A stretch of 64,000 nt of DNA, from positions 1,893-65,892 of the IMG/VR virus record IMGVR_UViG_3300017714_000004, one strand, 5' to 3'. The DNA comes from a virus. Taxonomy: Duplodnaviria; Caudoviricetes. This document shows, in pieces, positions 27,201 through 40,639 of the stretch (within the stretch, counting starts at the first letter, position 1; each line of letters begins with the position of its first letter). The position numbers and the translations under genes are program-made. Under the pieces are notes generated by a model. It had not been told where the DNA came from, did no database searches, and saw nothing but the letters and a program-made list of their open reading frames with translations.

Positions 27201-30200
27201 AGTGCCTCATTTTCATTGTTTTCACTTACGTCAAGAAGCTTAAACTCTTGAGTACCTGTCCTGAAGCTGATATCACTTGTGTTAGGTAGGAAGAAACTAC
27301 CGACTATCTCTCCTTTACTATCTGTCTGTAGTGCACTCTTTCCACCCAGAGCAGACGGATATTCTGTTTCATTTGCATACTCGCTACCAAATTCTGTTGG
27401 ACTGTCAGAGAACCTTGATTCTGAAGATTCTTGTCGGACCCAATCTTCCATAGGTAAACCACCGAAGTATGCGAACACCTTAGTGTTAGGACGCAATCCT
27501 TTCGCAGAGAACTTGATTCTACGAGATCGCATGAACGGAATGATTTCTATGTCTGCAACCTGTTCACCAATGAAGTCTTGTATGCTTCGAGTAGTTTCTC
27601 TGAAGGACACATCTCTTGGCATTGTTGTGAATAGGTTGTTGCCACTACGCAGTCTGAAGTTTCGATCACGTATAGTAGGATTGTTCCATAGGTCTGCTTC
27701 GAAGTTTTCGAAACGACGTACTGTGGTCTGCATGATTGGTGGTAGAGTACGAGTCTCGACCCACTCATCTGAAGACGGTGACAGTTCTAAGTGACCTGTT
27801 TGAGTTATTACTGCAAACGGGTTGATATTCATTGTACTAGTAGCAAGTACTTGTGATACTAAATTCTCATGTAAGAAGGGCAGTGTTACTACGTCACCAC
27901 TTTTTGCCGAAGTTTCGGTAGCAAAATTATCTGGACTATATTCAAGTCGAATAGAGTTCTCACGGAAAGACGGTTTCAAGTGACCCTGTGAGTCGATAGA
28001 AGCACGATATTCTGGATTGTCAATGTCTGAGAAAGTGAATGAACTAAAGTTGTCTGCAATGAATCCTGCTTTGGTTCTTGCGTTACCATTTTCATCAAGC
28101 ACGACCAGTGAATTAGTGCTGGACTCTAACAGACTCAAGGTGGTTAGTTCAAACAAGTCTGTTACTCGTTGCTCCAACTTACCGATATCTTTCATTGTGA
28201 ATCGTTTGTTTGGAATGAAAGTACTTGTTAGATCTGAACTTGAGAAAGTATAAGGGTTTAATACAAACTTGTATAGAGCCAGAGAGCCTGTTGGGATTTC
28301 TGGTTCACGTGGATTAATATTTGGTTCGCCTTGGATGACCTGTAGTTCACCAAATCCAACACTTCCTCGGCTGTCGGTTGCGTTTGCAACCAAAATATCG
28401 ATACGAGGTAGGTAGTACTTAACCTGATCGATAGTTACAGAAGATGAGTTCTGAGGTAGCTCAGTGATATTAAATTCGTTCCCTTCAGCGTCTGGTGGCG
28501 TTCGGACAGGACGGAAGTCCAATACGTCTCGTAGAGAGATTACTTGTCCACCAGAAGTTGTATGATTAGGAATGTTTTCGTAATCTTCTCCTTGATATGA
28601 GCTACATGCAAAGTATCGTCCGCTGTTATCATGAGCAAAATATTCATATTCTACTTCTACTTGAACATTAGAACCAGTAGGTATTTTATATCCACCCTTG
28701 ATATTTGCCTGACCATTGTCATAGAAGTTATCTCTCTGACCACCATCCAAGATAAACTGGTTGGTTATATCAGTTTCAGCTTCACCATTCTTATGTGTTA
28801 CTGAGGTGATAGAGATTACATCTGGATTACTTAAAAATAATGGTCTTGCTTCTTGATCTGAATTAGGAAGAGAAAAAGTCTCTGTCACAGAGGTACGGGT
28901 CTTTTTTCGAGGACCTGAACTTACTGATTGGTATGTAGCAACAACATAGTTTGTATCTGGTTCTAGACCAGTATATGAACCATCTGTAGTAGAAACCGCA
29001 GCGATAGGTCCGTCTTGTTGCGCAATAACCCAATCCGGATATTCTACTCCACTCAGGGATAAGTCACCGTTAGAATCTGACGACACGGATTTCCAGCTTT
29101 GGACTGTGAAATTTGCTGATTCAATAGTATTTGCTTTAGGACTATTCTTAGGTAATGGGAACAGTAAGCTATTCTCAGAAGTACCGTAAAGAGTGGAGTC
29201 CCCATCAAGTAAAGGTATAGTGTTAGTTGTTCGTGAATCATACAGAGAATCTACGTTGGAGAAGTTTTCTGTTCCAATCTTATCACCATCGTTGTTTCTA
29301 ATGGCATCCATTCGAATGTTGAATAGATATAATCTATATCCTTTAGAGTCTTGTTGGACTCCTCGAACATTAGCATATCCAATAAAGTCAGATCCGTTCT
29401 GCAATCGAACTTCTCCGAAATAGTCTAGTCTACCAAAACCTTGAGTAGTAGTTGGGTCGATATAGACATAGTTACCATATGTTGCTGGTACAGATTCGTT
29501 CGAGAAAGTTACGGTGCCTCTTGACTTAGGAACTTCTATTTCGTCTTGTCCAATATCTAAACGATATCCGTCGACATACGCGATACCCTTGGTAACGTCT
29601 AGAGTTAGGTTGTCCTCATTCTCAGAATCTTTAAAGATTGATTTGAACTCTTCTACTACATAGTTGCCTGATTCTTCTTTTGTTCTTTGTGCAAGCAAAT
29701 CATTGATTTTGTTATATGAATCAAACGTGTTTACTTCGCGGGTAATATTACCTTCAACTACACGTGCAATGAATACGAAGTTTTCTTCGACAGCTACTTG
29801 ACTACGGGTTGTTGGAATTAGTTTGATCTGATATCGATCAGCGCCTGGGGCAGTCGCATCTGGAACATCACCTTGGTTGTCGTACAGGTCTTCGTTGTCA
29901 TCTACTGTGATAACTTTCTGTTCGATTCGGAAACCAATGTCATCGGTAGGAGTATGACTATACTTGTCGATGAATGCACTGCCACCTTCCATAAACACAA
30001 AGTGACCTTCAACGAAGAAGTCACCTGAAGCAAAGTATGCCTTCGTTCCACGACCCGCTGATGGGATGACACCATCGTCAGCAACTGACAGTTGTTTAAT
30101 TGTGTTGTGTATTGTACACGTCAGAACTTCGTTTTTTAATACTCTTGCAGACTTTTTTGTATCTGCAACATTAATAGTATCAGTGTACTGTACGTAAAGA

Positions 30201-30562
30201 GTGGTTGGATCTGGGTTCTCAGAATCAGATGATACTACTACTTCCAGAACCTTGAATTCTAAACCAGATGCGCTGGTGAAAATCTCACCGACTGCATTGA
30301 AGTCCAAAGCACTACTACTGTCTAGGCGAATGTATTCAATACTAGTATCTACTGTCGCACCGCCTGGATTAATTAATGCGCCTTCCTTGAATAAGTTACG
30401 TCCAAATCGAGAAATCTCTTCGTGAAGGATTGTCTGAGATTCAATTAATTCTCTTGCCTGTAGTGCTCGTCCAGAATTAAACAATACACGATGATAACCA
30501 TCTTCAGCGTTGTAGAAATCGCGGTATGTTTCTTTGAACGTTTTGTTTGTAAAATCTGCCAT
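24296..30562 (-). CDS. Large virion structural protein, DUF4815-like (2088 aa)
   Basis: YHRVLFNSGRALQARELIESQ, APGADRYQI, RTKEESGNY, DPLAQTF, GSLFLSQNGFTW and DLRAIAL motifs of the cyanophage-type large baseplate/tail protein. Confidence 0.85.
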   Translation of the reverse strand: MADFTNKTFKETYRDFYNAEDGYHRVLFNSGRALQARELIESQTILHEEISRFGRNLFKEGALINPGGATVDTSIEYIRLDSSSALDFNAVGEIFTSASGLEFKVLEVVVSSDSENPDPTTLYVQYTDTINVADTKKSARVLKNEVLTCTIHNTIKQLSVADDGVIPSAGRGTKAYFASGDFFVEGHFVFMEGGSAFIDKYSHTPTDDIGFRIEQKVITVDDNEDLYDNQGDVPDATAPGADRYQIKLIPTTRSQVAVEENFVFIARVVEGNITREVNTFDSYNKINDLLAQRTKEESGNYVVEEFKSIFKDSENEDNLTLDVTKGIAYVDGYRLDIGQDEIEVPKSRGTVTFSNESVPATYGNYVYIDPTTTQGFGRLDYFGEVRLQNGSDFIGYANVRGVQQDSKGYRLYLFNIRMDAIRNNDGDKIGTENFSNVDSLYDSRTTNTIPLLDGDSTLYGTSENSLLFPLPKNSPKANTIESANFTVQSWKSVSSDSNGDLSLSGVEYPDWVIAQQDGPIAAVSTTDGSYTGLEPDTNYVVATYQSVSSGPRKKTRTSVTETFSLPNSDQEARPLFLSNPDVISITSVTHKNGEAETDITNQFILDGGQRDNFYDNGQANIKGGYKIPTGSNVQVEVEYEYFAHDNSGRYFACSSYQGEDYENIPNHTTSGGQVISLRDVLDFRPVRTPPDAEGNEFNITELPQNSSSVTIDQVKYYLPRIDILVANATDSRGSVGFGELQVIQGEPNINPREPEIPTGSLALYKFVLNPYTFSSSDLTSTFIPNKRFTMKDIGKLEQRVTDLFELTTLSLLESSTNSLVVLDENGNARTKAGFIADNFSSFTFSDIDNPEYRASIDSQGHLKPSFRENSIRLEYSPDNFATETSAKSGDVVTLPFLHENLVSQVLATSTMNINPFAVITQTGHLELSPSSDEWVETRTLPPIMQTTVRRFENFEADLWNNPTIRDRNFRLRSGNNLFTTMPRDVSFRETTRSIQDFIGEQVADIEIIPFMRSRRIKFSAKGLRPNTKVFAYFGGLPMEDWVRQESSESRFSDSPTEFGSEYANETEYPSALGGKSALQTDSKGEIVGSFFLPNTSDISFRTGTQEFKLLDVSENNENEALSTTRASYTSSGSIESVQRTVRSTRVIERVRGRRDPLAQTFYVDQIENPNGLYITRAHIYVETKDSVIPLQVQIRPVENGIPTSSIMPGGVKFINPDEIVLATNPETIEDVQGSPTVVEFDEPVYLTSGEEYCIVLLAESVEYNVYVAETYQNVFGSREDRITKQPTLGSLFLSQNGFTWTPDQTKDLMFKLDRAEFQTSGSVVLDNGMLPKTALESNPINTVLGSSIIQVTHEGHGFSDGNTVTISGASEVSGIPASALNASHEVLSPTWEGYSIQLATNQQASSSISGGGSAIVASQQVYFDQFVPQIQTLIPNSTSISSKVRKTNATSYGNSNGRTTAAFNMAIGNEETVFLNDFNSNQVPSVVASSDNSSSPTMKMILNMSTSDTKVSPLIDLQRTSALTLENVIDTDDAAQHITIPVVIDESSLGLKIIFAANRPAGADFDVYVKTAVDEDTLETEPLWVEALADNSMPSDDNPSTFRDYEYTINTDQFSVFQVKIVMQSNNSSKSPVIRDLRAIALITGGTAGTNTSNNDDTSGGGGNDDTSGGGNDDTSGGGSGEDNDDTGTSLSAVAFPEISQLPTSVSITGAPRILSQYNPESDTNNYMTPDEYWHQGTRRVRLFAKFDNNGDFQLYTNDPKKGSVNVGDDSLTGSTILATGKWLDRPVEVGEIFECGFRITHVDDVALPVYSGAFATQATPRAELRNVGTGADIGYQEVISVDVGELDSSGNMITWGGHGLVIDEHNNSLDNGAPWTVDSLHLDPEVAITGTVRIEIFISPDNSLDNGTTLTGTTSIPLDVSYTLEGAPLVDDSLESQLVLLNADDGFVYDQDPILTYYSLDSTKPKNFHDGATVPDQVLTVDANSSVDFHMMWGSEQDSTINVTFGLAWTNSGTTVTLNRGDFASFTVANVPQGTDATVTATSTLRGSTFSREVKMIVGEGFTSTPGDGDTPGGGGDGGDEGDPQQN
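25528..25602. repeat. Three tandem copies of CCACCACCGGACGTGTCATCATTA (NDDTSGGG linker)
   Basis: Direct repeats visible in both DNA and protein. Confidence 0.85.
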
Positions 30563-30570
30563 GATTAATC

Positions 30571-31962
30571 CTAAACGGTGATTACTATCTTAATGTCTTC
30601 TTGTTGTTCTGGGTCACGTCGAATTCTGTGACGACTCTCAATGTACATGACATTTCCGGAGAATCTGTCTATACCATTGACCAGAGATATGCTTTCGATA
30701 TCCCCTGTAAGCACTATTCCTGCTTGGACTAATGCCTCACCCACTTGGAATGGTTTGAATCCTGTAGATTCATTTTGATGATAGAATACTTCTTTGTCTA
30801 CCGACTGATTAACATATGCCTTGGCACCAGATATAGAGCCAGTGACTACCTTACCTGATTCAAACGGTGAGCTATTCACTAAAGTAATAGAAGGTAGGGT
30901 CTTGATAGATGCTCCAACGAAAGGAGTACCGTCTGGTTGAAGAGGGTTTTTAATCAGACCCATCTGTCGGAATGTATTGAATGTAATAAAAGTACCGCCA
31001 ACGTCACCATCTGGTTTGATGTTTGTCATAACTGAACTTGTTTTCAAATCATCTATTGGATCGAATCCCAGTCCTGCTTGACTAGTCACTACTGCACGAG
31101 CAGTACTCGTAGTTACACCACCAATGATTTCAAAAGATGCGTGAGTGTATCCACTACCATAACTAGTCATTTTGATTTTAGTTATTGCACCAGTATTTGG
31201 ATCTATCTCTGCCACTGCGACAGCGCCAGTACCGTCACCGTGAATATTAATAGTAGGGACATTAGTATGTCCAGTCCCTGCATCAATAATAGTTGCACGT
31301 AGTATCTGTCCACCAATGGCTTCATCTCTGACTGTAGTTTGCAAGTCTTCGATGGAGTCGCCTGTAGGTAGATCAATCTCTGCCTTCTGTACTGGGATAT
31401 GATTTGACGATAGGTACTGATAGATATTTTCTGGTCTTAAAGAGAATGAATATTTCCAAATATAACCGTCAGCAGTTTCGAATGGTTTCCACCACTCGCG
31501 AACGTTAAACATCGGTGCGTTAGGATCAGTCTCTGGACTCATAGGTGCATGTAGTCCCCAGTTAGGTTCTATGATAGACTGCTTCTTAGTACCGTCGATA
31601 TTCAAACCAGTTTCTAAACATATGTAAACTTCTTTGGCGTCATTCATGACATACCAAGGAGTCCAAGGTTCTACGATATCGGATGAGGTAGTATCGTCCC
31701 AACCAGTGTATTCTGAACCAGATGACCAGTTAACCCTTTTAGCTACAAAGGTAGAACCTTCAATCTTTTTGATTGACTGTAGTGCATTTCGAAACTCTCT
31801 CTCATCAAAAGGGCAGTCGACTGGTGGGACTACTGTATCTTGTTCATTGAAAGTATCTGACTTTGAGATACCAATGTAGTATTCATTGTCGGTGTTAGCG
31901 ATATCTAATAAAAGATCTCTAGCTAACTTACGACTAAGTGTTTGTCTTACTATTGCTGGCAT
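30571..31962 (-). CDS. 8: Baseplate wedge protein gp8
   Basis: RVNWSSG...YVMNDAKEVYICL...TADGYIWKY...FRQMGLIKNP...SGNVMYIESR...QEDIKIVI. Confidence 0.9.
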   Translation of the reverse strand: MPAIVRQTLSRKLARDLLLDIANTDNEYYIGISKSDTFNEQDTVVPPVDCPFDEREFRNALQSIKKIEGSTFVAKRVNWSSGSEYTGWDDTTSSDIVEPWTPWYVMNDAKEVYICLETGLNIDGTKKQSIIEPNWGLHAPMSPETDPNAPMFNVREWWKPFETADGYIWKYSFSLRPENIYQYLSSNHIPVQKAEIDLPTGDSIEDLQTTVRDEAIGGQILRATIIDAGTGHTNVPTINIHGDGTGAVAVAEIDPNTGAITKIKMTSYGSGYTHASFEIIGGVTTSTARAVVTSQAGLGFDPIDDLKTSSVMTNIKPDGDVGGTFITFNTFRQMGLIKNPLQPDGTPFVGASIKTLPSITLVNSSPFESGKVVTGSISGAKAYVNQSVDKEVFYHQNESTGFKPFQVGEALVQAGIVLTGDIESISLVNGIDRFSGNVMYIESRHRIRRDPEQQEDIKIVITV

Positions 31963-31998
31963 TGTTTTTTCCCACGCATGTTAGAAATATTCTTCTTA

Positions 31999-32006
31999 TA
32001 TTTATA
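31999..32006 (-). promoter_or_regulatory. T4-type late promoter
   Basis: TATTTATA on +, upstream of gp8. Confidence 0.8.
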
Positions 32007-32012
32007 ACGATT

Positions 32013-32891
32013 TTATGACTCGTTTATAAATTTGTTTATCCAAGTCTGCTTTTGGTGCTGATTCATTAACAAATCTTTGTATATAACTGGTAATTCGTAT
32101 GGACTGCTTCTCCATTGAGGAACATGTTTGAGTGCTTCATCACGCATAGGTTGCAAGTAATCCTCATAGCTATGTACCTTCTGAGCACTACCTTCGGTAG
32201 TTCTGTCAATACAATACAAATCACTTGACATGGTTAAGAAGTAACAGATGTTTCCCTTCTGGTGTTCTGCTAATAACTTGTAGGTGTATGCGTGATCTTC
32301 TCCGTTACCAATATCTTCGTTCATTTTTATTTGTGCAGACTTACGACTCTGCAACATAATGAAGTCAACTGACACTGGACGCTCATCAATAAACAGATGA
32401 CTTTCTTGAGGACCGACGTTTTGAGTCACGGCACACATAGAGGTACCCCATACACTGGCGTGGTAGTTATCATTAACCCACCAGTAATGTCCTTGCTCTA
32501 GTGGAAAGTTACATAAACAATCACATGGTACCACACCTAGAACATCAATGCAAGGATAATGCTTATAATGATTCCACAGCGACTGTAAGTACGACGGATA
32601 TAAAAAATCATCTCCATCGATCTGAGATACAAAATCACAGTCACTTTCTAGAAATACATCTAGACATGCATTTTTACCACGGCCTGGTTTACCATTACTT
32701 TCCGTATTGACTACACGGAATGGTAGATTAAGTGCGCATACATCTTCATAGTATCCTTCATGAATACTATTTACAACGATCACCACTTCCCATTCTATTG
32801 GGCTTATCTTTATTACATTATTAACCGACTTAACAAGTCTCGCCAACTTCGGAACATCATTCGAGGTCAGCAACGTTGTCATCAATTTCAT
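32013..32891 (-). CDS. GT2-like glycosyltransferase (292 aa)
   Basis: EVVIVVN...SNGKPGRGKNACL...QIDGDDFLYP (DxD) and a GED motif. Confidence 0.82.
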   Translation of the reverse strand: MKLMTTLLTSNDVPKLARLVKSVNNVIKISPIEWEVVIVVNSIHEGYYEDVCALNLPFRVVNTESNGKPGRGKNACLDVFLESDCDFVSQIDGDDFLYPSYLQSLWNHYKHYPCIDVLGVVPCDCLCNFPLEQGHYWWVNDNYHASVWGTSMCAVTQNVGPQESHLFIDERPVSVDFIMLQSRKSAQIKMNEDIGNGEDHAYTYKLLAEHQKGNICYFLTMSSDLYCIDRTTEGSAQKVHSYEDYLQPMRDEALKHVPQWRSSPYELPVIYKDLLMNQHQKQTWINKFINES

Positions 32892-33445
32892 TATTCTGCT
32901 CCGAAGAAGAACGTCTGAAATAATCTACCGTCGTATTGATTTGTACCAAAGCCAGGAACTACACTTCTATGATAATACATTGCATCATATATTACAAGTC
33001 TATTGTATATATTTTTTGATTCTGCAACAATATCCCAGTCACCTTCAATCAACTGAAATTCATTGAAGTCGACTGGACAGGAATCTTCATGCTTCATGAT
33101 TCCCGTTGGTCTATGTTTATAGATTGCAGTGCCAGAGTCTAGAGGCGCATCTGGGGTGAGATATATTACCGCAGCGAACTGCATTCGATCGTGGTGAATC
33201 CACGTCTTGCAAGTTTCGGTAGTATATTGGAAGGAAGTGTTGTATTCATCTAATGGAAAGTAAGTTATAGTTTTACCTATAATATGTTCCATTGATGCTA
33301 TCATCGAATCGACGTAACCACCGTCATTAGTACATGGTGCTGTTCTTACGCCAGGATAGTTACCTGTCACATCAAAGGTTTGACTTAAAGCATAACCCCG
33401 AACTGAATCGGGGTCTGCATAGAAATTATCAATAATTGTAAACAT
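32891..33445 (-). CDS. 2OG-Fe(II) oxygenase (DUF6445/prolyl-hydroxylase-like, 184 aa)
   Basis: IIDNFYADPD...NYPGVRT...WIHHD (HxD)...AAVIYL...NRLVIY...YHRS...RLFQTFF. Confidence 0.8.
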   Translation of the reverse strand: MFTIIDNFYADPDSVRGYALSQTFDVTGNYPGVRTAPCTNDGGYVDSMIASMEHIIGKTITYFPLDEYNTSFQYTTETCKTWIHHDRMQFAAVIYLTPDAPLDSGTAIYKHRPTGIMKHEDSCPVDFNEFQLIEGDWDIVAESKNIYNRLVIYDAMYYHRSVVPGFGTNQYDGRLFQTFFFGAE

Positions 33446-33467
33446 AATATACCTGTGTTGTATGGGG

Positions 33468-36400
33468 TTATAATGCCCCTATCTTAACTCTTGGGAAGGT
33501 GTTGACAGCATCGAATATTGAAATATTGTCAGCTCCAAATTCCATCCTTGCACCACTTGTAGCTGTATTTAGAAGACCACTAAGATCTAAAAATCCTTGG
33601 TTATTGGTCAACTCATCAAAGGAAGAGTTAGTAGTAGTTTCTATTCTATCTACTGTGGCACGGAACACCCGTCCACTATTAATGTGCCAGTATACATCAC
33701 CAATGAAAACTGTATCAACAGTACGGAAAGACCTTATCTGTGAAGACGCTGTGGCGTTTACGTTAGAAGGGAATGTGGTGTTTGTATCAAATATTACTGC
33801 GTTACCAAATCCACCAACCGGACCTTGTCCACCTTGGGTACCGGCAACACCTTGTCCACCTTGGACACCAATTGGACCGTCTGGACCTTGTCCACCTTGC
33901 TCACCCTGAGAACCAGTTGCTCCGGCAGCACCAGTATTACCTTTGACACCTTGTGCGCCTGTGTCTCCTGTTGCACCTTTAGTTCCTTGTGCACCTTGGT
34001 CACCTGTGTTACCTTTGACACCTTGGGCACCTGTGTCTCCTGTTGCACCTTTATTTCCTTGAGCACCTTGGTCACCTGTGTTACCTTTGGTTCCTTGGGC
34101 GCCTTGGTCACCAGTATTACCTTTAGCTCCTTGTGCGCCTTGGTCACCAGTATTACCTTTAGCTCCTTGTGCACCTGTGTCTCCTGTTGCACCTTTAACA
34201 CCCTGATTACCAACTGGACCTTGTCCACCTTGAGGACCGTTATTACCCGTCTGACCTTTTATTCCCTGATTACCAATTGGACCCTGTTCTCCTTGTGGTC
34301 CATTATTACCAGTCTGTCCCTTGATACCTTGGTTGCCGACAGGACCTTGTCCACCCTGTGGTCCGTTATTACCTGTCTGACCTTTAATGCCCTGATTACC
34401 GACAGGACCTTGTTCACCTTGAGGACCATTGTTACCTGTTTGTCCTTTTATACCTTGGTTACCAACGGGTCCTTGTCCACCTTGAGGACCATTGTTACCA
34501 GTCTGTCCTTTGATGCCCTGATTACCAACCGGGCCCTGTTCACCCTGTGGTCCGTTGTCACCAGTTTGTCCTTTAACACCTTGGTTACCGACTTCACCTT
34601 GAGCGCCCTGTGGACCATTATTACCTGTCTGTCCTTTAACACCTTGGTTACCGACTTCACCTTGAGCACCCTGTGGTCCATTATTACCAGTTTGACCCTT
34701 GACACCTTGAGCACCAACTGGACCCTGTTCCCCTTGAGGACCATTGTCACCAGTTTGACCTTTAACACCTTGGTTACCAACTGGACCCTGACCGCCTTGA
34801 GGACCGTTATTACCCGTCTGACCTTTGATACCTTGGTTACCAACTGGACCTTGTTCACCTTGAGGACCATTGTTACCAACGGCACCTTGGAAACCAACTG
34901 CTCCCTGTGAACCTTGTTCACCCTGATTACCAACTAAACCTTGCGCTCCTTGGAAACCTACTGGACCCTGATTACCTTGTTCGCCTTGAGGTCCTACTAG
35001 ACCTTGTGCGCCATCAGCACCCTGAGCACCTTTCTCTCCATCAGCACCTTGTGGACCATTGTCACCAGTTTGTCCTTTAACACCTTGGTTACCAATTGGA
35101 CCCTGTTCCCCTTGAGGACCATTGTTACCAGTTTGACCTTGCTCACCCTGTGGTCCAGTATCTCCATCAGCACCTTGAGGTCCTACTAGACCTTGTGCAC
35201 CAGTTTCACCTTGTGCACCTTTTTCTCCGTCAGCACCTTGGGCACCAACCAGACCTTGAGCACCATCTGCTCCTTGTGGTCCAGTATCTCCGTCAGCACC
35301 TTGAGGTCCTACAAGACCTTGAGCACCAGTTTCACCTTGTGCACCTTTTTCTCCATCCGCACCTTGAGGACCAACATTACCAACTTGACCCTGTGGACCA
35401 GCGACACCTTGTGGACCGTCTGCTCCTTGTGGTCCAGTATCTCCATCTGCTCCTTGAGGACCGGCATCGCCTGGGTTACCTTGTGGACCCACTGGGCCTG
35501 GAGTTGTACCCGCTGGACCTTGAGGGCCTGGGTCTCCTTCAAGTCCTTGCGGACCTACTGGGCCTGGAGTAGTACCTGCTGGACCTTTAGGGCCTGGATC
35601 TCCTTGAAGTCCAGTACCACCCTGCGCTCCAGTTGCTCCGGCAGCACCTGTAGAACCTGTAGAACCTGTTACACCTGTTGCACCTAATGGGCCTGGGTTA
35701 CCCTGAAGTCCGGCAACACCTTGAGCACCAACATCACCAGTAGCACCTTTATCTCCAACATTACCCTGAAGTCCGGCAGCACCTTGAGCACCAACTGCAC
35801 CAGTAGCACCTTTATCTCCAACATTACCTTGAATTCCAGCAGCACCTTGTGCGCCAGCAGAACCTTGTGGTCCTAATTCACCGACATTACCTTGAATACC
35901 AATAGCACCTTGAGCACCATCTGCGCCTTGTGCACCAACTGCACCAGCATTGCCTTGCAAACCAGTAGCACCAGTTACACCAGTAGAACCAGTGGCACCT
36001 TGCTCTCCAGCATTACCTTGGAGACCACGGAAACCTTGAGAACCTTGTTCACCTTGAGGACCGACTTCACCTACATTACCTTGAATTCCAGCAGCACCTT
36101 GTGCGCCAGCAGAACCTTGTGGTCCTAATTCACCAACATTACCTTGGACCCCTTGTGGTCCAACTGCCCCTGCATTACCTTGTGGTCCGACTTCACCTAC
36201 ATTACCCTGTAGGCCTACATTACCCTGAACACCTTGTATACCTTGAGGTCCAGTCTCGCCAGGATTACCTTGGAGACCAATAGCACCCTGTGATCCAGTC
36301 TCTCCTTGAGGACCAGTTTCGCCTGGGTTACCTTGAAGACCAATAACACCCTGAGAACCCTGTTCTCCTTGTGCTCCAGTTTCGCCTGGGTTGCCTTGTA

Positions 36401-37301
36401 AACCAATTATTCCTTGCGGTCCAGCTTCACCTTGCGGACCAGTCTCGCCAGGATTACCCTGAAGACCAATAACACCCTGAGAACCTTGCTCCCCTTGTGG
36501 TCCAGTCTCGCCAGGATTTCCCTGAAGACCAATGATACCTTGAGCACCTTGTTCACCCTGTGGTCCAGTTTCGCCTGGGTTACCTTGGAGACCTATGATT
36601 CCCTGTGGACCTTGTTCACCCTGTGCTCCAGTTTCGCCTGGGTTACCCTGAAGTCCGATTATACCTTGTGGTCCGGTCTCTCCTTGAGGTCCAGTTTCGC
36701 CAGGATTACCCTGAAGACCAGTTTCACCTTGAGCACCAGTTTCACCTTGAGGACCAGTCTCGCCAGGATTACCTTGGAGACCAGTTATACCCTGCGGACC
36801 TTGATTTCCTTGAGGTCCGGTTTCGCCTGGGTTACCTTGAAGTCCAGTTATACCCTGTGGTCCGACTGCACCTTGTGGTCCTATTGGGCCTGGCGTAGTA
36901 CCTTGTGGTCCGACTTCACCTTGTGCACCTTGTGGACCAACTCCCCCCTGTAGACCGACTCCACCTTGTGGACCGAGTTCGCCTGGGTCTCCTTGAGGTC
37001 CCTTTTCACCAATGTCTGTGTTGTCAATGATTTCTTGGATGTTAGAAACTCGTGCATCCAAGTTAGTAATATCATTAGCATTATCGGTAATTTTGCTAGG
37101 GTCTACCCCATTAAGGGCTTCCAGAACTTCGGTATCGACCAGATTGCTGATAAATTCTGGAGTGATACCATCACCGCCACCAATATCAACCTGAGAGTAT
37201 AGTTCCTCAAAGTTTTGATTTATTTTTTCACTGGCTTCGCGGAGAGTGTCACCACTTCCGTCGTTCGCAGAACCGCCAGTATTTAGAATTTTTCTCGACA
37301 T
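33468..37301 (-). CDS. Collagen-like baseplate-anchored fibre (1277 aa)
   Basis: gp9/gp10-like N-terminus [27 protein letters not shown], about 1070 aa of Gly-X-Y and a C-terminal [13 protein letters not shown]...RVKIG. Confidence 0.9.
33798..37010 (-). repeat. Gly-X-Y collagen repeat (~357 triplets by span) with 18-aa super-repeats
   Basis: 9-nt periodic acc/tcc on +; blocks such as [18 protein letters not shown] and [21 protein letters not shown]. Confidence 0.95.
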
Positions 37302-37313
37302 TATAGGTTTCCG

Positions 37314-38273
37314 TTATGTGTGGTCTGATGCGTCTAGGGTTTCGTATTCTTGAGATAGGTCTAAACCTTCATCATCCAAAGTTGGTGGTCTTACGCCAGC
37401 CCAATCTGCGACTGTTACGAAATCATCAGCCAACTGTTGCAGAGATACATTTTCGTATCTGTCCAAAGTCTCTAGAGAACTTACAATGATACCTGAACCC
37501 TCATCCTTTTGTGCTTGTGTTCTAACATCTACTGCATCATTCTCTTCCATAGTAAGTAGAGAATAGGTAGGTTGTACATGTGTACCTAGTGCAGTTGCTT
37601 CAAGTAGTATAGCATAATTAGGAATTTCTAATGGGTCTACGGTTAATCCTGCCTTTAAATCAACACTTGCAACTGATTGTGTTTCTGTTTCGGCAGCAAG
37701 GTAGAACCCAGCTGGGTGTATCAACTTAGTATATAGTGTTTCATAATCACTCAAGGACATACCTGTTTTCAAAAGAACTGAAAATATCTGGTATTTCTTA
37801 TCGTCCTGTATATACCTCAATGACTGAGGTCCAATTAATGAACCGCCAGGCTTGTCATTTAATATGAAGATGTTTTTCTTAGGATAACTTATTTCTACAT
37901 CTTCACCATAAAATGCTTTAAAAAACTGTTCGGTTGAGATACCTGTACCCTTAGCGCGGTAAAGGTCAACAAGAAGTCTTGCCATCAACCGTGGACTCTG
38001 ATAGAATGATGACGTTTCTAGTCCGTCACTTATCTCTCCTATCAGTTGATCCAAATAACTTAATTCGGTGCTAGAGATACTTCTCACATCAAACAAGTTA
38101 TGAATTTTTTGGGTTATAGAAGTATTACCTTCCTCTCCAGTGCTCTCGTAGTACTTCTCTATAAACGAAATTAGTTTAGGATATTCATCTACGAAAAACT
38201 CCGGCAATACCTGAGATACCTGACTCTGGTAGAACTTGGGAGCACTTCTGTATTGTCTGGATATGTTAGACAT
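37314..38273 (-). CDS. 7: Baseplate wedge protein, short gp7-like (319 aa)
   Basis: LPEFFVDEYPKLISFIEKYY...LYRAKGT...FFKAFYGE...YQIFS...LIHPAGF; lies between gp6 and gp8. Confidence 0.7.
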   Translation of the reverse strand: MSNISRQYRSAPKFYQSQVSQVLPEFFVDEYPKLISFIEKYYESTGEEGNTSITQKIHNLFDVRSISSTELSYLDQLIGEISDGLETSSFYQSPRLMARLLVDLYRAKGTGISTEQFFKAFYGEDVEISYPKKNIFILNDKPGGSLIGPQSLRYIQDDKKYQIFSVLLKTGMSLSDYETLYTKLIHPAGFYLAAETETQSVASVDLKAGLTVDPLEIPNYAILLEATALGTHVQPTYSLLTMEENDAVDVRTQAQKDEGSGIIVSSLETLDRYENVSLQQLADDFVTVADWAGVRPPTLDDEGLDLSQEYETLDASDHT

Positions 38274-40132
38274 TATTGTATAACCCTAGTTGCCCCTGCA
38301 TCTATATAACCAGTAGTCGACGATACACTCTCATCTAATGTTATGATGTAATTACGTAGTGGACTAATTGTGCTCTGGTTCGCAGGCACTGCTGATAATC
38401 GAATACCAGTTCCTACATAACCGTCCTTGTCAATACGTATTGAATTAAGTAGTATGGTTCCCTTCACTGGATCGTATGTGCCAATGTTATTAATCATGAC
38501 TGCGCCATCAAGGTCCAATAGTTGTAATTGAGTTGAACCCAATAGGTTTTTGATTACAACGTTCTTGCCATCTGATTTAAACACTGAAGAGTTTATTATA
38601 TGGTCATCCTTGTCTGGTTCTGCAAGCAAGAATGGGAATTTAATTGTGTGATCTTTTTCTATGTACGATAGTAGTGGTCTACCCAGCGCATTCTTTGATT
38701 CTTCGATTGCTTTAATCTGACTATCAAGGTCAATTCGTTGCTGTACCTTAACTGACATCTTAGAGTTAAGTATCGCAGAAGACAATGAATCTACCTGAGT
38801 TAATAGATTAGAACGACGGAAGACTGATTCAAATGTACCTAAAACGCTATCCATATAATCTCTAATGAATGCGTCGACTTGAGCCTGTAATGCTTCGGTA
38901 GAGGAAGGACTCTTTAGTGGGTCGATATTAAATACTGTAGTCAACTCTAAGAACGTCATCTCTGGTTCAACGAACTCTGTATCGATGGACATAATAGATA
39001 GGTTGGATGTCAGCTGGTCTTTGATATTCTGTTTAACTTCTTCTTCGACCGAAGGCGCTACTCCATCTAAGAAATTAAGACTGACAAATACCTTTCCGAA
39101 TTGTCGTGGTATATTATCATTACCACCCCATGCAATGACATCACGTATGAAGTTACCATAGTTTTTTGATATCAATGCAGTATAATCGTCTGCTGTAACT
39201 AATCTGTTCTGTGCGGCAAATGACCTAGGTGCGTTTAGTTTGATTGATTCTACGTTTTCTTTCTCTGCACCGCCACCACTTGCAGCGATAACTGATACCT
39301 GAATAGGTTGACCATCAACGGTAGTTGAAGTACTGAACACCTCTGCACCGTTTGCTTCTGAACCACGGGACGTGATATAAGTTACTTCTATTCGGTTACC
39401 AGCGCGTGGCGCAGTACCTAAGATATTACCGTCGCTAAAGAATAACTCGTACTGACCATTAGCAGTCTCTCGTAGAATGAATACTTTAGAGTCAGAGTTT
39501 ACTGTAGTAACATTGTTGATGTCAGAGAATCTCTGGAATCTGTTAGACAGATAGTTATCGTATACTTTAACATTAACAGTAGATACATCTAGCGTGTCGT
39601 CTGGCAGTACATATACACCACCTTCTTCACCGACAAGGAATGTCTTTGTTTTAGTAGATCCTTCCCGTACAGTTATTCGCGAATCATTAGAGAAGTCTTT
39701 GAATACGTAGTTCCCATTATCGAACTGTGCTGTGCATTGCTCTTGAGTAGTGAACGTATATACCGACGTACCCAAAGAAGAGGTGAACTCTGTACCGATA
39801 GGTAGAGACAATGAAGCAGGACCTGTAGTATGACCTACAATTGATAGTGATAGAATGGCAGACGATGCAGTACGTGACTTAGGAATGTAACCTAGTGACT
39901 CTGCATGTGATACAACCGATGATCGTAACTGTGCGGACCCAAGAAAGGATTCGTTAATCGCCATGTTGGCAACCAGACCATTGATATGTGTGTTGTGTGC
40001 CAATACATCTAGTATATTAGATAGACCACTTGCGGTAAAGTCGTAATCTTGAAATTCTGTTTGCTGTTCTAGATACGTTTGTAGTTGAGACTTTATCGAA
40101 AAGAAGTCTAACTCTGAATTTTGTATAGCCAT
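38273..40132 (-). CDS. 6: Baseplate wedge protein gp6
   Basis: LDFFSIKSQL...FQDYDFTASGLSNILDVLAHNTH...SAQLRSSVVSHA...AQNRLVTADDY. Confidence 0.95.
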   Translation of the reverse strand: MAIQNSELDFFSIKSQLQTYLEQQTEFQDYDFTASGLSNILDVLAHNTHINGLVANMAINESFLGSAQLRSSVVSHAESLGYIPKSRTASSAILSLSIVGHTTGPASLSLPIGTEFTSSLGTSVYTFTTQEQCTAQFDNGNYVFKDFSNDSRITVREGSTKTKTFLVGEEGGVYVLPDDTLDVSTVNVKVYDNYLSNRFQRFSDINNVTTVNSDSKVFILRETANGQYELFFSDGNILGTAPRAGNRIEVTYITSRGSEANGAEVFSTSTTVDGQPIQVSVIAASGGGAEKENVESIKLNAPRSFAAQNRLVTADDYTALISKNYGNFIRDVIAWGGNDNIPRQFGKVFVSLNFLDGVAPSVEEEVKQNIKDQLTSNLSIMSIDTEFVEPEMTFLELTTVFNIDPLKSPSSTEALQAQVDAFIRDYMDSVLGTFESVFRRSNLLTQVDSLSSAILNSKMSVKVQQRIDLDSQIKAIEESKNALGRPLLSYIEKDHTIKFPFLLAEPDKDDHIINSSVFKSDGKNVVIKNLLGSTQLQLLDLDGAVMINNIGTYDPVKGTILLNSIRIDKDGYVGTGIRLSAVPANQSTISPLRNYIITLDESVSSTTGYIDAGATRVIQ

Positions 40133-40582
40133 TTATCTGGTCCTTGCAATGTTTAAATTCAACGTAACAACTTTTTGGGTATTCACCACTTCAAAAACTA
40201 TAGTCACATCTAAGGAATTGCCGTCTGGATTTACCAAACTTCTAATGTTTTGTATCCTTGCTCTGGGTTCGAACTTCTCTAGGGCATAACTAATATTAGC
40301 ACTAACGTCCTCTACTTCTAAATCTGTAGATAGACTGAAAAGAAGATCGTATAGGTTAGCACCATAATATGGTCTGTATGGAAGTTCTCCATGATTAGTC
40401 ATAAGAAGATTCTTTACAGACTGCAATACCGCCGCGGCATCTGTCTTTTTATAGATGCCACCAGTAGGGGATGCTTCGAATGTACAGTCTATATCTGAAT
40501 AGGTACGAGTAACCGAAGTCGTAATCGGAGTCTTCTGTAAATTACCATCCTGTATAGAAAAATTTCTTTTTGCCGAACCCAT
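40133..40582 (-). CDS. 25: Baseplate wedge protein gp25
   Basis: YSDID...AVLQSVKNLLMTNHGELPYRPYYGANL...EKFEPR. Confidence 0.92.
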   Translation of the reverse strand: MGSAKRNFSIQDGNLQKTPITTSVTRTYSDIDCTFEASPTGGIYKKTDAAAVLQSVKNLLMTNHGELPYRPYYGANLYDLLFSLSTDLEVEDVSANISYALEKFEPRARIQNIRSLVNPDGNSLDVTIVFEVVNTQKVVTLNLNIARTR

Positions 40583-40614
40583 ATCGATTATCCATCGTTA
40601 TATACTTTTTCTAC

Positions 40615-40622
40615 TATTTATA
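40615..40622 (-). promoter_or_regulatory. T4-type late promoter
   Basis: TATTTATA on +, upstream of gp25. Confidence 0.8.
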
Positions 40623-40639
40623 CAGAAACTGAAGCCTTC

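Follow-up and report, generated by a model that had tools for sequence, protein, structure and literature searches.

Collagen-like tail fibres are known from phages, those of E. coli O157 prophages reportedly being an example, and many PHROG tail-fibre families have the same collagen repeats; annelid and vent-worm cuticle collagens carry hydroxyproline at the X position and galactosylated Thr at the Y position of the Gly-X-Y triplet. As presented in PMC8968730, Mimivirus encodes collagen-like fibre proteins, L230 (a bifunctional lysyl hydroxylase and glycosyltransferase) and the glucosyltransferase R699, and the Thr-rich collagen-like exosporium protein BclA of Bacillus is O-glycosylated. Iyer et al. 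2010 predicted bacterial collagen-like and tail-collar proteins co-encoded with beta-hydroxylase/PhyH-type dioxygenases and sulfotransferases, and in the relevant part of that paper cyanophage dioxygenase arrays are taken for secondary-metabolite enzymes (PMC2938197). A literature search turned up no collagen-like tail fibre that is accompanied by an oxygenase and a glycosyltransferase (GT) of its own.

The window (the whole 64,000-nucleotide stretch of DNA analysed) comes from a marine T4-like myophage whose baseplate operon encodes a collagen-type fibre, then an oxygenase, then a GT2 enzyme. As in Mimivirus, one viral genome supplies a collagen-repeat surface fibre, a 2OG oxygenase and a GT-A glycosyltransferase; unlike Mimivirus, the host is a bacterium and not an amoeba, and unlike L230, the enzymes are separate and apparently translationally coupled genes within a baseplate operon. 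Judging from relatives, the two enzymes probably mature the fibre in a manner similar to the collagen processing of animals and giant viruses. The features of the locus are as follows.

40615..40622 (-), TATAAATA late-promoter-type motif upstream of the gp25-like gene (pattern scan)
40133..40582 (-), gp25-like baseplate wedge protein, 149 aa (PF04965, E 1.3e-12; phrog_261)
38273..40132 (-), gp6-like baseplate wedge protein, 619 aa (PF21379, E 2.4e-18; phrog_219, E 1.4e-130)
37314..38273 (-), short gp7-like baseplate wedge protein, 319 aa (PF23786 Baseplate_wedge, E 6.6e-15)
33468..37301 (-), collagen fibre ORF, 1277 aa (ORF call; Pfam Collagen)
37011..37301 (-), fibre N-terminal 97 aa, gp9/gp10-type baseplate anchor (PF07880; phrog_677)
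33798..37010 (-), collagen shaft, residues 98-1168 (triplet count; Pfam Collagen)
36891-36893 (-), third shaft break, residue 137 (triplet analysis)
35499..35567 (-), mid-shaft pair of one-residue breaks (GPAGTT-P-GP twice, 22 residues apart)
33468..33797 (-), fibre C-terminal non-collagen domain, 109 aa plus stop (family searches)
32891..33445 (-), DUF6445 2OG-Fe(II) oxygenase, 184 aa (PF20043, E 4.3e-12)
32013..32891 (-), GT2 (GT-A fold) glycosyltransferase, 292 aa (PF00535, E 3.5e-7)
31999..32006 (-), TATAAATA late-promoter-type motif inside the 50-bp GT-gp8 spacer (pattern scan)
30571..31962 (-), gp8-like baseplate wedge protein, 463 aa (phrog_438, E 3.1e-65)

The flanking matches agree with the preliminary description, which had placed the three genes between gp7 and gp8, with a translationally coupled GT2 and a late promoter restarting at gp8; the gp8-like protein, whose gene forms the downstream edge of a variable enzyme slot, scores below cut-off against PF09215 (E 2.3e-4). 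Fibre, oxygenase and GT2 genes follow one another head to tail: 22 bp separate the first two, and the oxygenase stop overlaps the GT ATG as TAATG, an arrangement that predicts translational coupling of the two enzymes within a late structural operon. The window holds 12 TATAAATA motifs against 2.7 expected, and 12 were reached in 0/100 shuffles. The closest such site 5' of the three genes on the same strand is that ahead of the gp25-like gene, and a scan across 30400-41000 found no terminator-like site; a single transcript probably runs from this motif through to the GT gene.

The fibre matches Pfam Collagen with an E-value of 4.6e-153. Its 356 Gly-X-Y triplets (previously put at about 357) form four runs (residues 98-136, 138-578, 580-600 and 602-1168), parted by three single-residue insertions that each read G-T-T-P-G-P, as described before, and the shaft is mostly assembled from 63-nt (7-triplet) modules. 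The extra residues of the mid-shaft break pair are 579 and 601, and the pair (GT[TE]PGP) recurs in 8/8 one-piece collagen fibres compared, which represent 4/19 of the oxygenase+GT2 class and 4/6 of the Capsule_synth class. The gp9/gp10-like anchor proposed earlier is borne out by PF07880 T4_gp9_10_N over residues 3-37 (E 6.4e-6, 26.8 bits, cut-off 25) and by phrog_677 'baseplate wedge tail fiber protein connector' (E 1.3e-14), and it is kept among relatives (37-83% identity) regardless of shaft type. The fibre thus resembles T4 gp9/gp10 in its N-terminal segment, but its shaft consists of ~1070 collagen residues instead of beta-structures; 1068 residues at ~0.29 nm would give about 300 nm, an arithmetic length that presupposes a continuous helix. 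Pfam and PHROG searches gave no significant family for the C-terminal 109-aa domain, presumed to be a trimerisation and/or receptor-binding tip, which varies in step with the enzyme set (identity is 47-72% among oxygenase+GT2 relatives and 32-45% in others). The Y position is filled by Q (154), T (60), V (40), K (26), A (18) and P (15), and the X position by P (70), A (66), N (54) and E (45). Gly-Pro-Gln is the commonest triplet (49 copies), and the Y-Pro, Y-Lys and Y-Thr triplets named in the preliminary description are all present (GNP 12, GDP 3; GVK 8, GIK 6, GAK 2; GET 16, GQT 12, GAT 10, GDT 6).

The HxD...H...R oxygenase recognised earlier belongs to DUF6445 and has the layout H84-x-D86...H159 plus R174, the metal and 2OG-binding set; H84, D86, H159, R149 and R174 are invariant across 41 homologues. 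Its AF2 model (pLDDT 95.9) is a complete DSBH oxygenase fold that most resembles protein prolyl hydroxylases, led by OGFOD1 (Z 14.3; 158 aligned at rmsd 2.6) and followed by P. putida PPHD (13.3), Trichoplax PHD (13.2) and PHD2 (12.5). Because the H84/D86/H159/R174 set is invariant and the predicted fold is nearest to protein prolyl hydroxylases, the oxygenase looks active. The fold and HxD...H triad are shared with collagen P4Hs (animal C-P4H, PBCV-1 vCPH, Bacillus anthracis P4H), for which an unfolded Gly-X-Y chain is likewise the presumed substrate, and the model superposes on PBCV-1 collagen P4H (Z 12.1), C-P4H-II (Z 11.2) and the hydroxylase domain of mimivirus L230 (Z 11.2, rmsd 2.3); HIF-type and ribosomal prolyl hydroxylases are structurally nearer. 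Unlike collagen P4Hs, the protein is DUF6445 and not 2OG-FeII_Oxy_3, and by Pfam and comparison with solved P4Hs it matches no P4H, falls outside the P4H and PLOD sequence families and is unrelated to L230 in sequence.

The GT exceeds the PF00535 cut-off of 23.3 with 30.7 bits and carries an invariant D92-G-D-D95; in structure it resembles generic GT2 enzymes of the polysaccharide and teichoic-acid kind. Many DUF6445 homologues are, like L230, fused to a glycosyltransferase: PF00535 is present in 23/35 longer homologues and in 12/25 sampled representatives. Either domain may come first in these fusions; some include TPR, and a giant virus supplies one of them. A DUF6445 gene also lies within ~1.3 kb at 5/10 loci with distant homologues of the window's GT, consistent with an oxygenase that works alongside GTs. 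BLASTP found no similarity between the window's GT and the GT2 parts of three fusion proteins. A predicted oxygenase-GT complex scored 0.52 (runs 0.47, 0.70 and 0.52; best of three controls 0.00) against a mark reached by 58/80 solved complexes and 2/110 mismatched pairs, scores of 0.60 or below accounting for only 7 of the 80 solved complexes and for both passing mismatches. Runs had at least 94% of contacts in common, with partner pLDDT of at least 88; the prediction is weakly suggestive of a complex.

Related loci were compared as 40 non-redundant rows, each a distinct gp8 sequence plus state, the window counted in. One or two enzyme genes lie between fibre and gp8 for 28/28 collagen fibres and 0/12 non-collagen fibres, the latter directly adjoining gp8 in 12/12 rows; in 5 of these 12 the contig stops within the fibre gene, leaving only the C-terminal 515-1076 aa visible. 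Fibre type and enzyme presence have each switched at least five times on the gp8 tree, and independent pairs agree in 5/5 cases (sign test p = 0.0625, the floor for five pairs, at which 0.05 is unreachable). The nearest named phage, C48C1, shares the fibre N-terminus (52% identity), has a shaft of helical repeats and lacks the enzymes. In the nearest relative overall, L031, gp6/7/8 are 93-94% identical to the window's, the fibre is a different, Thr/Arg/Lys-rich collagen, and a Capsule_synth protein replaces the two enzymes. Five enzyme sets, counted as non-homologous, occupy the slot: DUF6445 with GT2, DUF6445 alone, a 2OG-FeII_Oxy_4/3 oxygenase with a methyltransferase-type protein, the methyltransferase-type protein alone, and Capsule_synth alone. 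The 2OG-FeII_Oxy_4/3 enzyme matches OGFOD1 (E 7.6e-6) and Pseudomonas EF-Tu prolyl hydroxylase (E 1.5e-3) and is unrelated to DUF6445 (hhalign probability 0.4%), and by sequence comparison the slot reflects convergent recruitment, with two unrelated oxygenase families.

The linkage extends beyond these phages. At 19/31 loci from prokaryote genome contigs, a collagen-like gene (Gly-X-Y run of at least 8 triplets, same strand) lies just upstream of DUF6445, with such runs downstream at 0/31. At least eight cellular lineages are involved, including Pandoraea (11), Roseateles, Massilia and MAGs of Ignavibacteriae, Rhodobacteraceae, Saprospirales, Balneola and Poribacteria; adjacent GTs occur at three of the 19 loci, and at the Poribacteria locus a giant neighbour protein has a P4H peptide-substrate-binding TPR domain (E 2.7e-6). 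Collagen is missing at 5/24 prokaryotic loci where identity is 36% or higher and the upstream sequence spans 1.2 kb or more, and the 28-36% identical homologues of four cultured cyanophages lack any Gly-X-Y run within 6-7 kb, one homologue lying between gp55 and gp47; judged by these gene contexts, the family is not collagen-specific. Like BclA, the phage fibre would be a prokaryotic-type collagen filament on a particle surface with dedicated glycosyltransferases, and Y-Thr is frequent in it (60/356 triplets); unlike BclA, where glycosylation is hydroxylase-free, the phage collagen is a baseplate part and the oxygenase is the most constant partner in phage loci. The pairing of a dioxygenase with a Gly-rich collagen-like neighbour, with hydroxylation preceding a second modification, also recalls the systems set out in PMC2938197, which as described there differ in their dioxygenase families and in a second step of sulfation, not glycosylation.

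That a collagen maturation pathway is encoded, as the preliminary description proposed, is supported by this comparative linkage; its animal-style Y-Pro and Y-Lys targets are not conserved. In the oxygenase+GT2 class, represented by 19 distinct collagens, Y-Lys drops as low as 0 and Y-Pro as low as 1, so that Y-Lys, the L230 target, is missing from several collagens orthologous to the phage fibre, while Y-Thr is found in 19/19 (14-68 copies). Gly-Pro-Gln is found in 19/19 collagens at DUF6445-linked prokaryotic loci. Those of Pandoraea and Roseateles, at loci where no neighbouring GT turned up, consist essentially of G-x-Q alone, with at most one Y-Pro and with Y-Lys, Y-Thr, X-Asn and Ser all absent; X-Pro is therefore their sole remaining usual hydroxylation target. 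Only X-position Pro and Y-position Gln are hydroxylatable residues common to all DUF6445-linked collagens, and the collagens that accompany the OGFOD1-like oxygenase likewise contain 78-82 X-Pro, with Y-Pro limited to 0-2. Unlike the substrates of collagen P4Hs, the linked collagens nearly lack the Y-Pro of X-Pro-Gly, the X-Pro of Gly-Pro-Gln being the shared candidate. X-Pro and Y-Gln are just as abundant in oxygenase-less collagens, and composition therefore cannot single out the target.

We consider it probable that DUF6445 and GT2 are dedicated maturation enzymes of the phage's own collagen fibre. It is unlikely that they are instead cargo of a hypervariable host-recognition cassette, physically linked to the fibre and acting elsewhere, be it on another virion protein, the host envelope or O-antigen (excluding other phages) or a metabolite. 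Such cargo would suit the interpretation, given in PMC7029224, of GTs in structural and host-recognition regions of marine myophages as O-chain modifiers, and distant homologues of both enzymes do lie away from any collagen gene, which is absent within 8 kb at ten loci with 43-49% identical GT homologues. Fibre C-terminal domain, collagen type and enzymes change jointly, as a transferred block would, and the linkage could reflect a cassette moving as a block. Within the oxygenase+GT2 class, the enzymes are better conserved (oxygenase 71-86%, GT 73-89%) than gp8 (47-66%), with L105-107 set apart from that range as an exception (71-72%, 77-78% and 47-49%), which fits recent exchange. Cargo does not, however, account readily for the restriction of five enzyme sets to collagen shafts, the recruitment of two unrelated oxygenase families, DUF6445 directly 3' of collagen-like genes across cellular lineages, or the placement of coupled genes within a late structural operon.

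We also doubt, somewhat more strongly, that GT2 glycosylates shaft Thr/Ser directly while DUF6445 oxidises or hydroxylates a glycan or nucleotide-sugar precursor. A sugar-modifying or non-fibre role is conceivable given the collagen-free glycan clusters that harbour distant homologues: those of S-SSM7 and Sf-FS3, two of the four cyanophage homologues, lie among four or five GTs and a UDP-glucose dehydrogenase. Small-molecule and sugar-modifying oxygenases score nearly as high as the best structural match, 2-3 units under it (PolD Z 12.4, HalB 12.3, AviO1 11.5, HygX 11.3; EvdMO1 also within 11.3-12.4), the frequent fusions suit a glycan-centred role equally, and Y-Thr is universal in the class. 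Nevertheless, the four top matches are all protein prolyl hydroxylases, class B relatives (L054, L066, L052, L056) have DUF6445 after the collagen without a GT before gp8, the Pandoraea and Roseateles enzymes adjoin Thr/Ser-free collagens, and an unrelated OGFOD1-like protein hydroxylase takes the same slot elsewhere. A non-catalytic structural or assembly factor, for example a collagen trimerisation chaperone, would match the 'minor coat protein' label of phrog_1644 (E 8.8e-32) and of cyanophage homologues in RefSeq but is highly improbable given a complete oxygenase fold and a fully invariant metal/2OG-binding set in diverse homologues.

The dedicated maturation pathway draws strong comparative support from linkage, motifs and predicted folds, and from the gene content we infer its catalysis, substrate, target residue, step order and benefit as follows. 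A homotrimeric fibre would dock on the wedge through its gp9/gp10-type N-terminal plug and extend as a collagen triple helix, bent by a conserved double kink halfway along the shaft, to a small tip at the C-terminus. Oxygenase and GT2 would be produced late in infection together with the fibre, and the DUF6445 enzyme would hydroxylate still-unfolded collagen chains using Fe(II), 2-oxoglutarate and O2, most likely at the X-position proline of Gly-Pro-Gln; GT2 would then glycosylate either the new hydroxyl or shaft Thr/Ser, with a nucleotide sugar as donor. If this is true, the likely benefit to the phage would be a more stable, better hydrated or protease-resistant helix, or an altered host-recognition surface.

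The window covers 64 kb of a 65.9-kb record whose completeness is about 38% (CheckV). Its minus strand carries a T4-type structural module in which the collagen fibre and two enzyme genes stand between a gp7-like gene and gp8.

Structural module of the window, in gene order
First in order, minus strand: baseplate hub and tube genes
40133-40582, minus strand: gp25-like
38273-40132, minus strand: gp6-like
37314-38273, minus strand: short gp7-like wedge protein
33468-37301, minus strand: collagen fibre, 1277 aa
32891-33445, minus strand: oxygenase, 184 aa
32013-32891, minus strand: glycosyltransferase (GT), 292 aa
30571-31962, minus strand: gp8-like
24296-30562, minus strand: 2088-aa protein, phrog_358 (function unknown), after gp8 and followed by further fibre-like proteins

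The gp8-like protein is 65% identical to that of C48C1 (Kyanoviridae), the nearest named phage, which has no collagen cassette of this kind, and the interval 30571-33467 has no near-identity DNA match among named phages. NCBIfam was uninformative for oxygenase, GT and gp7. The 2088-aa protein contains Gly/Asp/Thr/Ser-rich low-complexity linkers (e.g. NDDTSGGGGNDDTSGGGNDDTSGGG) and is kept in all relatives, its first 600 aa being 50-82% identical. Outside the structural module, the window encodes a 521-aa protein whose C-terminal region is HNH/endonuclease VII-like (62122-63687, minus strand), a DNA methyltransferase (60048-61196, minus strand) and a tRNA-methyltransferase-like gene (59336-60058, minus strand).

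A TATAAATA motif sits in the 50-bp spacer ahead of gp8, in line with the late promoter restart that the preliminary description had placed there. Because the preceding same-strand copy lies upstream of gp25 and no terminator-like site was found between the two motifs, the fibre and both enzymes probably share one late transcript. The GT start codon overlaps the oxygenase stop codon (TAATG), which bears out the translational coupling proposed for this pair. A scan for sigma-70-type promoters was uninformative (24 sites against 21.6 expected).

The fibre contains 356 Gly-X-Y triplets in four runs (PF01391, E 4.6e-153), interrupted only by three single extra residues, each within G-T-T-P-G-P, and its shaft is built of 63-nt modules (7 triplets). 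It thus has the long repeat that PF01391 describes, and a trimeric triple helix is predicted. The first 97 residues hold the N-terminal motif of T4 gp9/gp10 (PF07880, residues 3-37, E 6.4e-6, 26.8 bits against a cut-off of 25), a match limited to the first 35 positions of the 175-position profile; the N-terminus also matches phrog_677 (E 1.3e-14). The last 109 residues matched no family. The preliminary description, with about 357 triplets, three GTTPGP breaks and a gp9/gp10-type anchor, was therefore accurate on the fibre apart from a single triplet.

Fibre architecture varies among related contigs, whose loci were fetched by profile or sequence scans and are numbered with an L. A mid-shaft pair of one-residue breaks, GPAGT[T/E]-P-GP, spaced by 22 residues (7 triplets plus 1; 35499-35567, minus strand, in the window), recurs in L002, L010, L031, L051, L096 and L099. 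It appears in one-piece fibres of both the class with oxygenase plus GT2 and the class with Capsule_synth (classes A and C in the table below), though their collagen compositions are very different; class-B fibres carry a 78-aa globular insert in its place, and the shafts of classes D and E are unbroken. The pair may serve as a hinge or for docking. In L021/L022, L054, L066, L077, L085, L086, L095 and L103, the fibre in the gp7-like/gp8 slot is split over three genes, encoding about 295 aa with the gp9/gp10-type N-terminus, about 400 aa without a family, and a collagen of 750-920 aa with the C-terminal domain; anchor and shaft thus need not be one polypeptide. In L018/L048, L033 and L035/L047, an additional gene is inserted between the gp7-like gene and the fibre; it encodes 224-488 aa and carries a PF24243 'phage tail tip' motif. 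The collagen frame is broken in L016 (3995-7958), where frameshift, repeat assembly error or decay are all possible.

The oxygenase has a single Pfam match, DUF6445 (PF20043; 46.9 bits, cut-off 24), and PHROGs labels it only 'minor coat protein'. H84-x-D86, H159, R149 and R174 are invariant in 41 homologues, supplying the HxD...H triad and the basic residue expected of the 2OG-Fe(II) superfamily, with a putative 2OG-binding arginine. The AF2 model (pLDDT 95.9) is a double-stranded beta-helix; 79 chains match it at Z of at least 8, and the top 50 entries listed are all 2OG-oxygenase-type folds. The best VIA-align matches are protein prolyl hydroxylases (OGFOD1, Z 14.3; P. putida PPHD, 13.3; Trichoplax PHD, 13.2; PHD2, 12.5), followed by several small-molecule oxygenases (Z 11-12.4), and the PBCV-1 collagen P4H scores 12.1, the mimivirus lysyl hydroxylase L230 11.2 and LH3 10.4. 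Foldseek gave a similar list of 160 matches at E ≤ 0.001, headed by an uncharacterised Roseovarius protein. Motif and model together point to a 2OG-dependent oxygenase as the predicted activity, and the HxD...H...R reading of the preliminary description agrees with the invariant H84, D86, H159 and R174 and with the modelled fold. Sequence searches of the PDB returned nothing significant (best E 0.92 with the single protein, 0.099, to PolD, with a profile). We rejected sequence membership of P4Hc/PF13640, given that DUF6445 is the only Pfam match and the PDB gave none, and likewise membership of the PLOD/L230 lysyl hydroxylases, which have no sequence match and rank in structure under the prolyl hydroxylases.

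The GT matches GT2 (PF00535; 30.7 bits, cut-off 23.3), and its D92-G-D94-D95 is invariant in 30 sequences; no PHROGs family and no significant PDB sequence match were found. Its model adopts a GT-A fold (pLDDT 92.3) closest to heparosan synthase, K4CP, SpsA and TarS (Z 15.6-14.6). R699 (Z 11.2) and LH3/ColGalT1 (Z 10.1) score below about 30 generic GT-A chains. A predicted oxygenase-GT complex scored 0.52 (runs 0.47, 0.70 and 0.52; best control 0.00), on a scale whose mark is passed by 58 of 80 solved complexes and 2 of 110 mismatched pairs, with only 7 of the 80 solved complexes, plus both passing mismatches, at 0.60 or under. The runs have at least 94% of their contacts in common and a partner pLDDT of at least 88, which hints that the two enzymes may form a complex.

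Scanning viral contigs with the oxygenase yielded 29 loci at 76-86% identity. The GT is adjacent in 29/29 (two GTs are cut by the contig end), and a collagen gene lies upstream in 28/29, the remaining locus starting inside the oxygenase. The oxygenase frame of L030 (3429-3979) is split into ORFs of 111 and 97 aa, for which frameshift, assembly error or decay are all possible. For the slot itself, a gp8 profile was used to take in 80 of 309 relatives. Loci with a visible fibre gene were classified, so that L006, L024, L028, L032, L038, L041, L044, L053, L055, L075, L082 and L091-L094, whose contigs stop short of the fibre or yielded no full-length gp8, fall outside the survey; identical gp8 sequences with the same state were merged, leaving 40 rows, window included. 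Such a survey of synteny had been proposed in the preliminary description; in it, one or two extra genes precede gp8 behind 28/28 collagen fibres and 0/12 non-collagen fibres. The latter all abut gp8 directly and have shafts of helical-repeat or other types, up to 1871 aa, 5 of the 12 being visible only as C-terminal pieces of 515-1076 aa.

Extra genes between collagen fibre and gp8 (class; genes; rows)
A; DUF6445 + GT2; 18 rows, window included
B; DUF6445 alone; 3 rows
C; Capsule_synth (PF05159) protein, 331-345 aa; 3 rows
D; 2OG-FeII_Oxy_4/3 oxygenase, 212-216 aa, + 428-440-aa protein; 3 rows
E; methyltransferase-type protein of class D, alone; 1 row

On the gp8 tree, fibre type and the presence of extra genes each change at least 5 times, and the type of extra gene at least 12 times; 5/5 independent pairs agree (p = 0.0625, the floor for five pairs). 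L031, the nearest relative of all (gp6/7/8 93-94% identical), belongs to class C. The 428-440-aa protein of class D combines a methyltransferase domain with a weak MptE-like region under the Pfam cut-off. By sequence, the class-D oxygenase resembles OGFOD1 (E 7.6e-6) and the Pseudomonas EF-Tu prolyl hydroxylase (E 1.5e-3), and profile comparison finds it unrelated to DUF6445 (probability 0.4%); two oxygenase families have therefore been placed independently behind collagen fibres. Between class-A contigs, the oxygenase (71-86%) and GT (73-89%) are more conserved than gp6/gp7/gp8 (47-74%), reflecting either strong selection on the enzymes or recent cassette exchange.

DUF6445 extends well beyond this phage clade, with 1828 representative homologues at E ≤ 1e-3. 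Many form the N- or C-terminal domain of a longer protein, some with TPR repeats and one from the giant virus Satyrvirus, and a GT2 domain is present in 23/35 longer matches and in 12/25 sampled representatives. We dropped the idea that oxygenase and GT arose as a split gene from such a GT2-DUF6445 fusion because the GT halves are not demonstrably orthologous (BLASTP of the GT against three fusions, both domain orders, E at least 1.2).

Prokaryote genome contigs scanned with an 8-sequence DUF6445 alignment gave 31 loci. A Gly-X-Y run of at least 8 triplets lies upstream on the same strand in 19/31 and downstream in 0/31; 4 of the 12 run-less loci have less than 800 nt of upstream sequence, and one 8-triplet run on the opposite strand occurs in a GC-rich genome. 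With the Collagen Pfam model matching 4/14 control genomes, we roughly estimate that chance adjacency would account for far less than one locus in 31. The collagen-linked loci come from 11 Pandoraea species, Roseateles and Massilia, from MAGs of Ignavibacteriae, Rhodobacteraceae, Saprospirales, Balneola and Poribacteria, and from one phage-like contig binned with a Porticoccaceae MAG. GT2 genes flank DUF6445 on both sides in the Ignavibacteriae locus, four GTs stand beside it in the Saprospirales locus, and its Poribacteria neighbour is a 1412-aa protein joining a P4H peptide-substrate-binding TPR domain to GT1 and methyltransferase domains. In Pandoraea and Roseateles a radical-SAM protein lies downstream of DUF6445, and in Pandoraea, the genus inspected for this feature, an ORF with what we read as a PP-loop-like motif lies upstream.

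The Pandoraea arrangement looks like a four-gene chromosomal cluster (L142, 3796-8113), and Roseateles (L150) and further Pandoraea species share its layout. Its members are a collagen-like protein of 345 aa, pure G-x-Q and built of 30-residue modules, the ORF with PP-loop-like SGGKDS, DUF6445, whose start overlaps that ORF, and the radical-SAM protein, and the cluster resembles a peptide-modification cluster around a collagen-like substrate. A 93-kb contig in a Porticoccaceae MAG (L138) carries collagen, oxygenase (79% identical), GT2 and a gp8-like gene. The contig probably belongs to a phage and was binned with a SAR92-type gammaproteobacterium, a slight hint that hosts of the phage clade need not be cyanobacteria.

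More distant homologues occur in other settings. Four cultured cyanophages encode DUF6445 homologues (28-36% identical) with no Gly-X-Y run within 6-7 kb: two in multi-GT clusters, one after tail-fibre genes beside another oxygenase, and one between gp55 and gp47. Ten loci with GT homologues (43-49% identical) have no collagen within 8 kb; in 5 of them a DUF6445 gene is close by, and the three records that contain this pair carry collagen-repeat ORFs elsewhere, which lends slight support to a link.

The reading we favour, at somewhat better than even confidence, is that the two enzymes mature the fibre chains made alongside them. Fibre and enzymes would be produced together late in infection; the oxygenase would hydroxylate the still-unfolded chains, and the GT would glycosylate either that new hydroxyl or Thr. 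Trimerisation would follow, starting at the C-terminal domain, and the gp9/gp10-type N-terminus would attach the chains to the wedge. The homologues in cyanophage GT clusters would suit a different role for the pair, as cassette cargo acting on another target such as the host envelope, or an oxygenase that modifies a sugar instead of a protein. We consider cargo unlikely and a sugar substrate improbable, as each is countered by class B, which has the oxygenase and no GT, by the GT-less Pandoraea loci and by the convergent recruitment of two oxygenase families. That the oxygenase-like protein is non-catalytic is scarcely credible.

Maturation of the fibre need not involve the residues first proposed. 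The preliminary description inferred a collagen maturation pathway acting at Y-position Pro and Lys; the slot linkage supports the pathway, and the proposed targets are kept across DUF6445-linked collagens in neither case. Y-Pro (GNP/GDP) makes up 15/356 triplets in the window fibre, ranges from 1 to 24 among 19 distinct class-A collagens and falls to 0-1 in Pandoraea and Roseateles; as a measure of site availability only, this led us to reject it as the conserved target. Y-Lys (GVK/GIK/GAK) was rejected on composition, ranging from 0 to 26 in class A and being 0 in several orthologous collagens and in 15/19 prokaryotic linked ones. X-Asn, which seemed distinctive inside the phage clade with 23-54 copies in class A, was rejected too because it numbers 0-1 in the linked collagens of Pandoraea and Roseateles, which are essentially pure G-x-Q (Y-Lys 0, Y-Thr 0). 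Always present in class A are, besides X-Asn, X-Pro (27-117), Y-Thr (14-68) and Y-Gln (102-225), and GPQ occurs in 19/19 prokaryotic linked collagens. Among residues with known hydroxylation chemistry, only X-Pro and, less plausibly, Gln are shared by all DUF6445-linked collagens. Because X-Pro is shared and the fold is prolyl-hydroxylase-like, our best guess, held at clearly less than even confidence, is the X-position Pro of Gly-Pro-Gln. X-Pro and Y-Gln are equally common in collagens without an oxygenase, and composition therefore permits this target and does not prove it.

Collagen composition follows the enzyme set. Class A/B collagens are acidic, with X positions rich in Ala and Asn and little X-Thr; those of classes C-E have 14-36% X-Thr and 11-23% Y-Arg, which would suit direct O-glycosylation of Thr by their enzymes. 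Collagens linked to the OGFOD1-like oxygenase of class D contain 78-82 X-Pro and 0-2 Y-Pro. Also at less than even confidence, DUF6445 as a whole could be an unrecognised, widespread family of hydroxylases for collagen-like proteins in bacteria, phages and giant viruses, directed at X-Pro of Gly-Pro-Gln and not at animal-type Y sites, and usually working with or fused to a GT.

Descriptions of prokaryotic and phage collagens usually present them as unmodified. The functionally closest known system is that of mimivirus, with its collagens, the L230 hydroxylase/GT and R699, followed by the PBCV-1 and Bacillus P4Hs and glycosylated BclA. The proposed logic is that of animal and mimivirus collagen maturation; unlike those systems, the genes reveal a different oxygenase family, a bacterial virus and a modular slot filled convergently, and the modified site is probably different. 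Passages of Iyer et al. (PMC2938197) predict that dioxygenases of other families act on the bacterial collagen-like proteins encoded beside them, and treat cyanophage dioxygenases as metabolite enzymes. Marine-phage '2OG oxygenase/P4H' and GT genes are usually taken for cryptic auxiliary metabolic genes (AMGs) or host-envelope modifiers, as in parts of PMC9301287 and PMC7029224. A literature search outside subscription journals and supplements, where an earlier description is possible, turned up no published collagen fibre of a bacteriophage accompanied by an oxygenase and a GT of its own, and no publication naming DUF6445.

For annotation, the survey offers a guide to a hypervariable baseplate slot, in which enzymes accompany every collagen shaft and no non-collagen shaft (40 rows from 80 of 309 relatives). 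If the maturation reading is true, DUF6445, so far a domain of unknown function (over 1800 representative homologues), would gain a concrete, testable substrate, a class of phage 'AMGs' would have a structural role, and two small enzymes of bacterial type (184 and 292 aa) might serve to modify recombinant collagens in E. coli. On the broader, more tentative reading of DUF6445 as a hydroxylase family for collagen-like proteins, the collagen shafts of marine T4-like phages would form, together with their maturation enzymes, an exchangeable baseplate-fibre module, evolved several times with non-homologous enzymes, and collagen hydroxylation and glycosylation would be a general prokaryotic and viral invention, convergent with the animal pathway.
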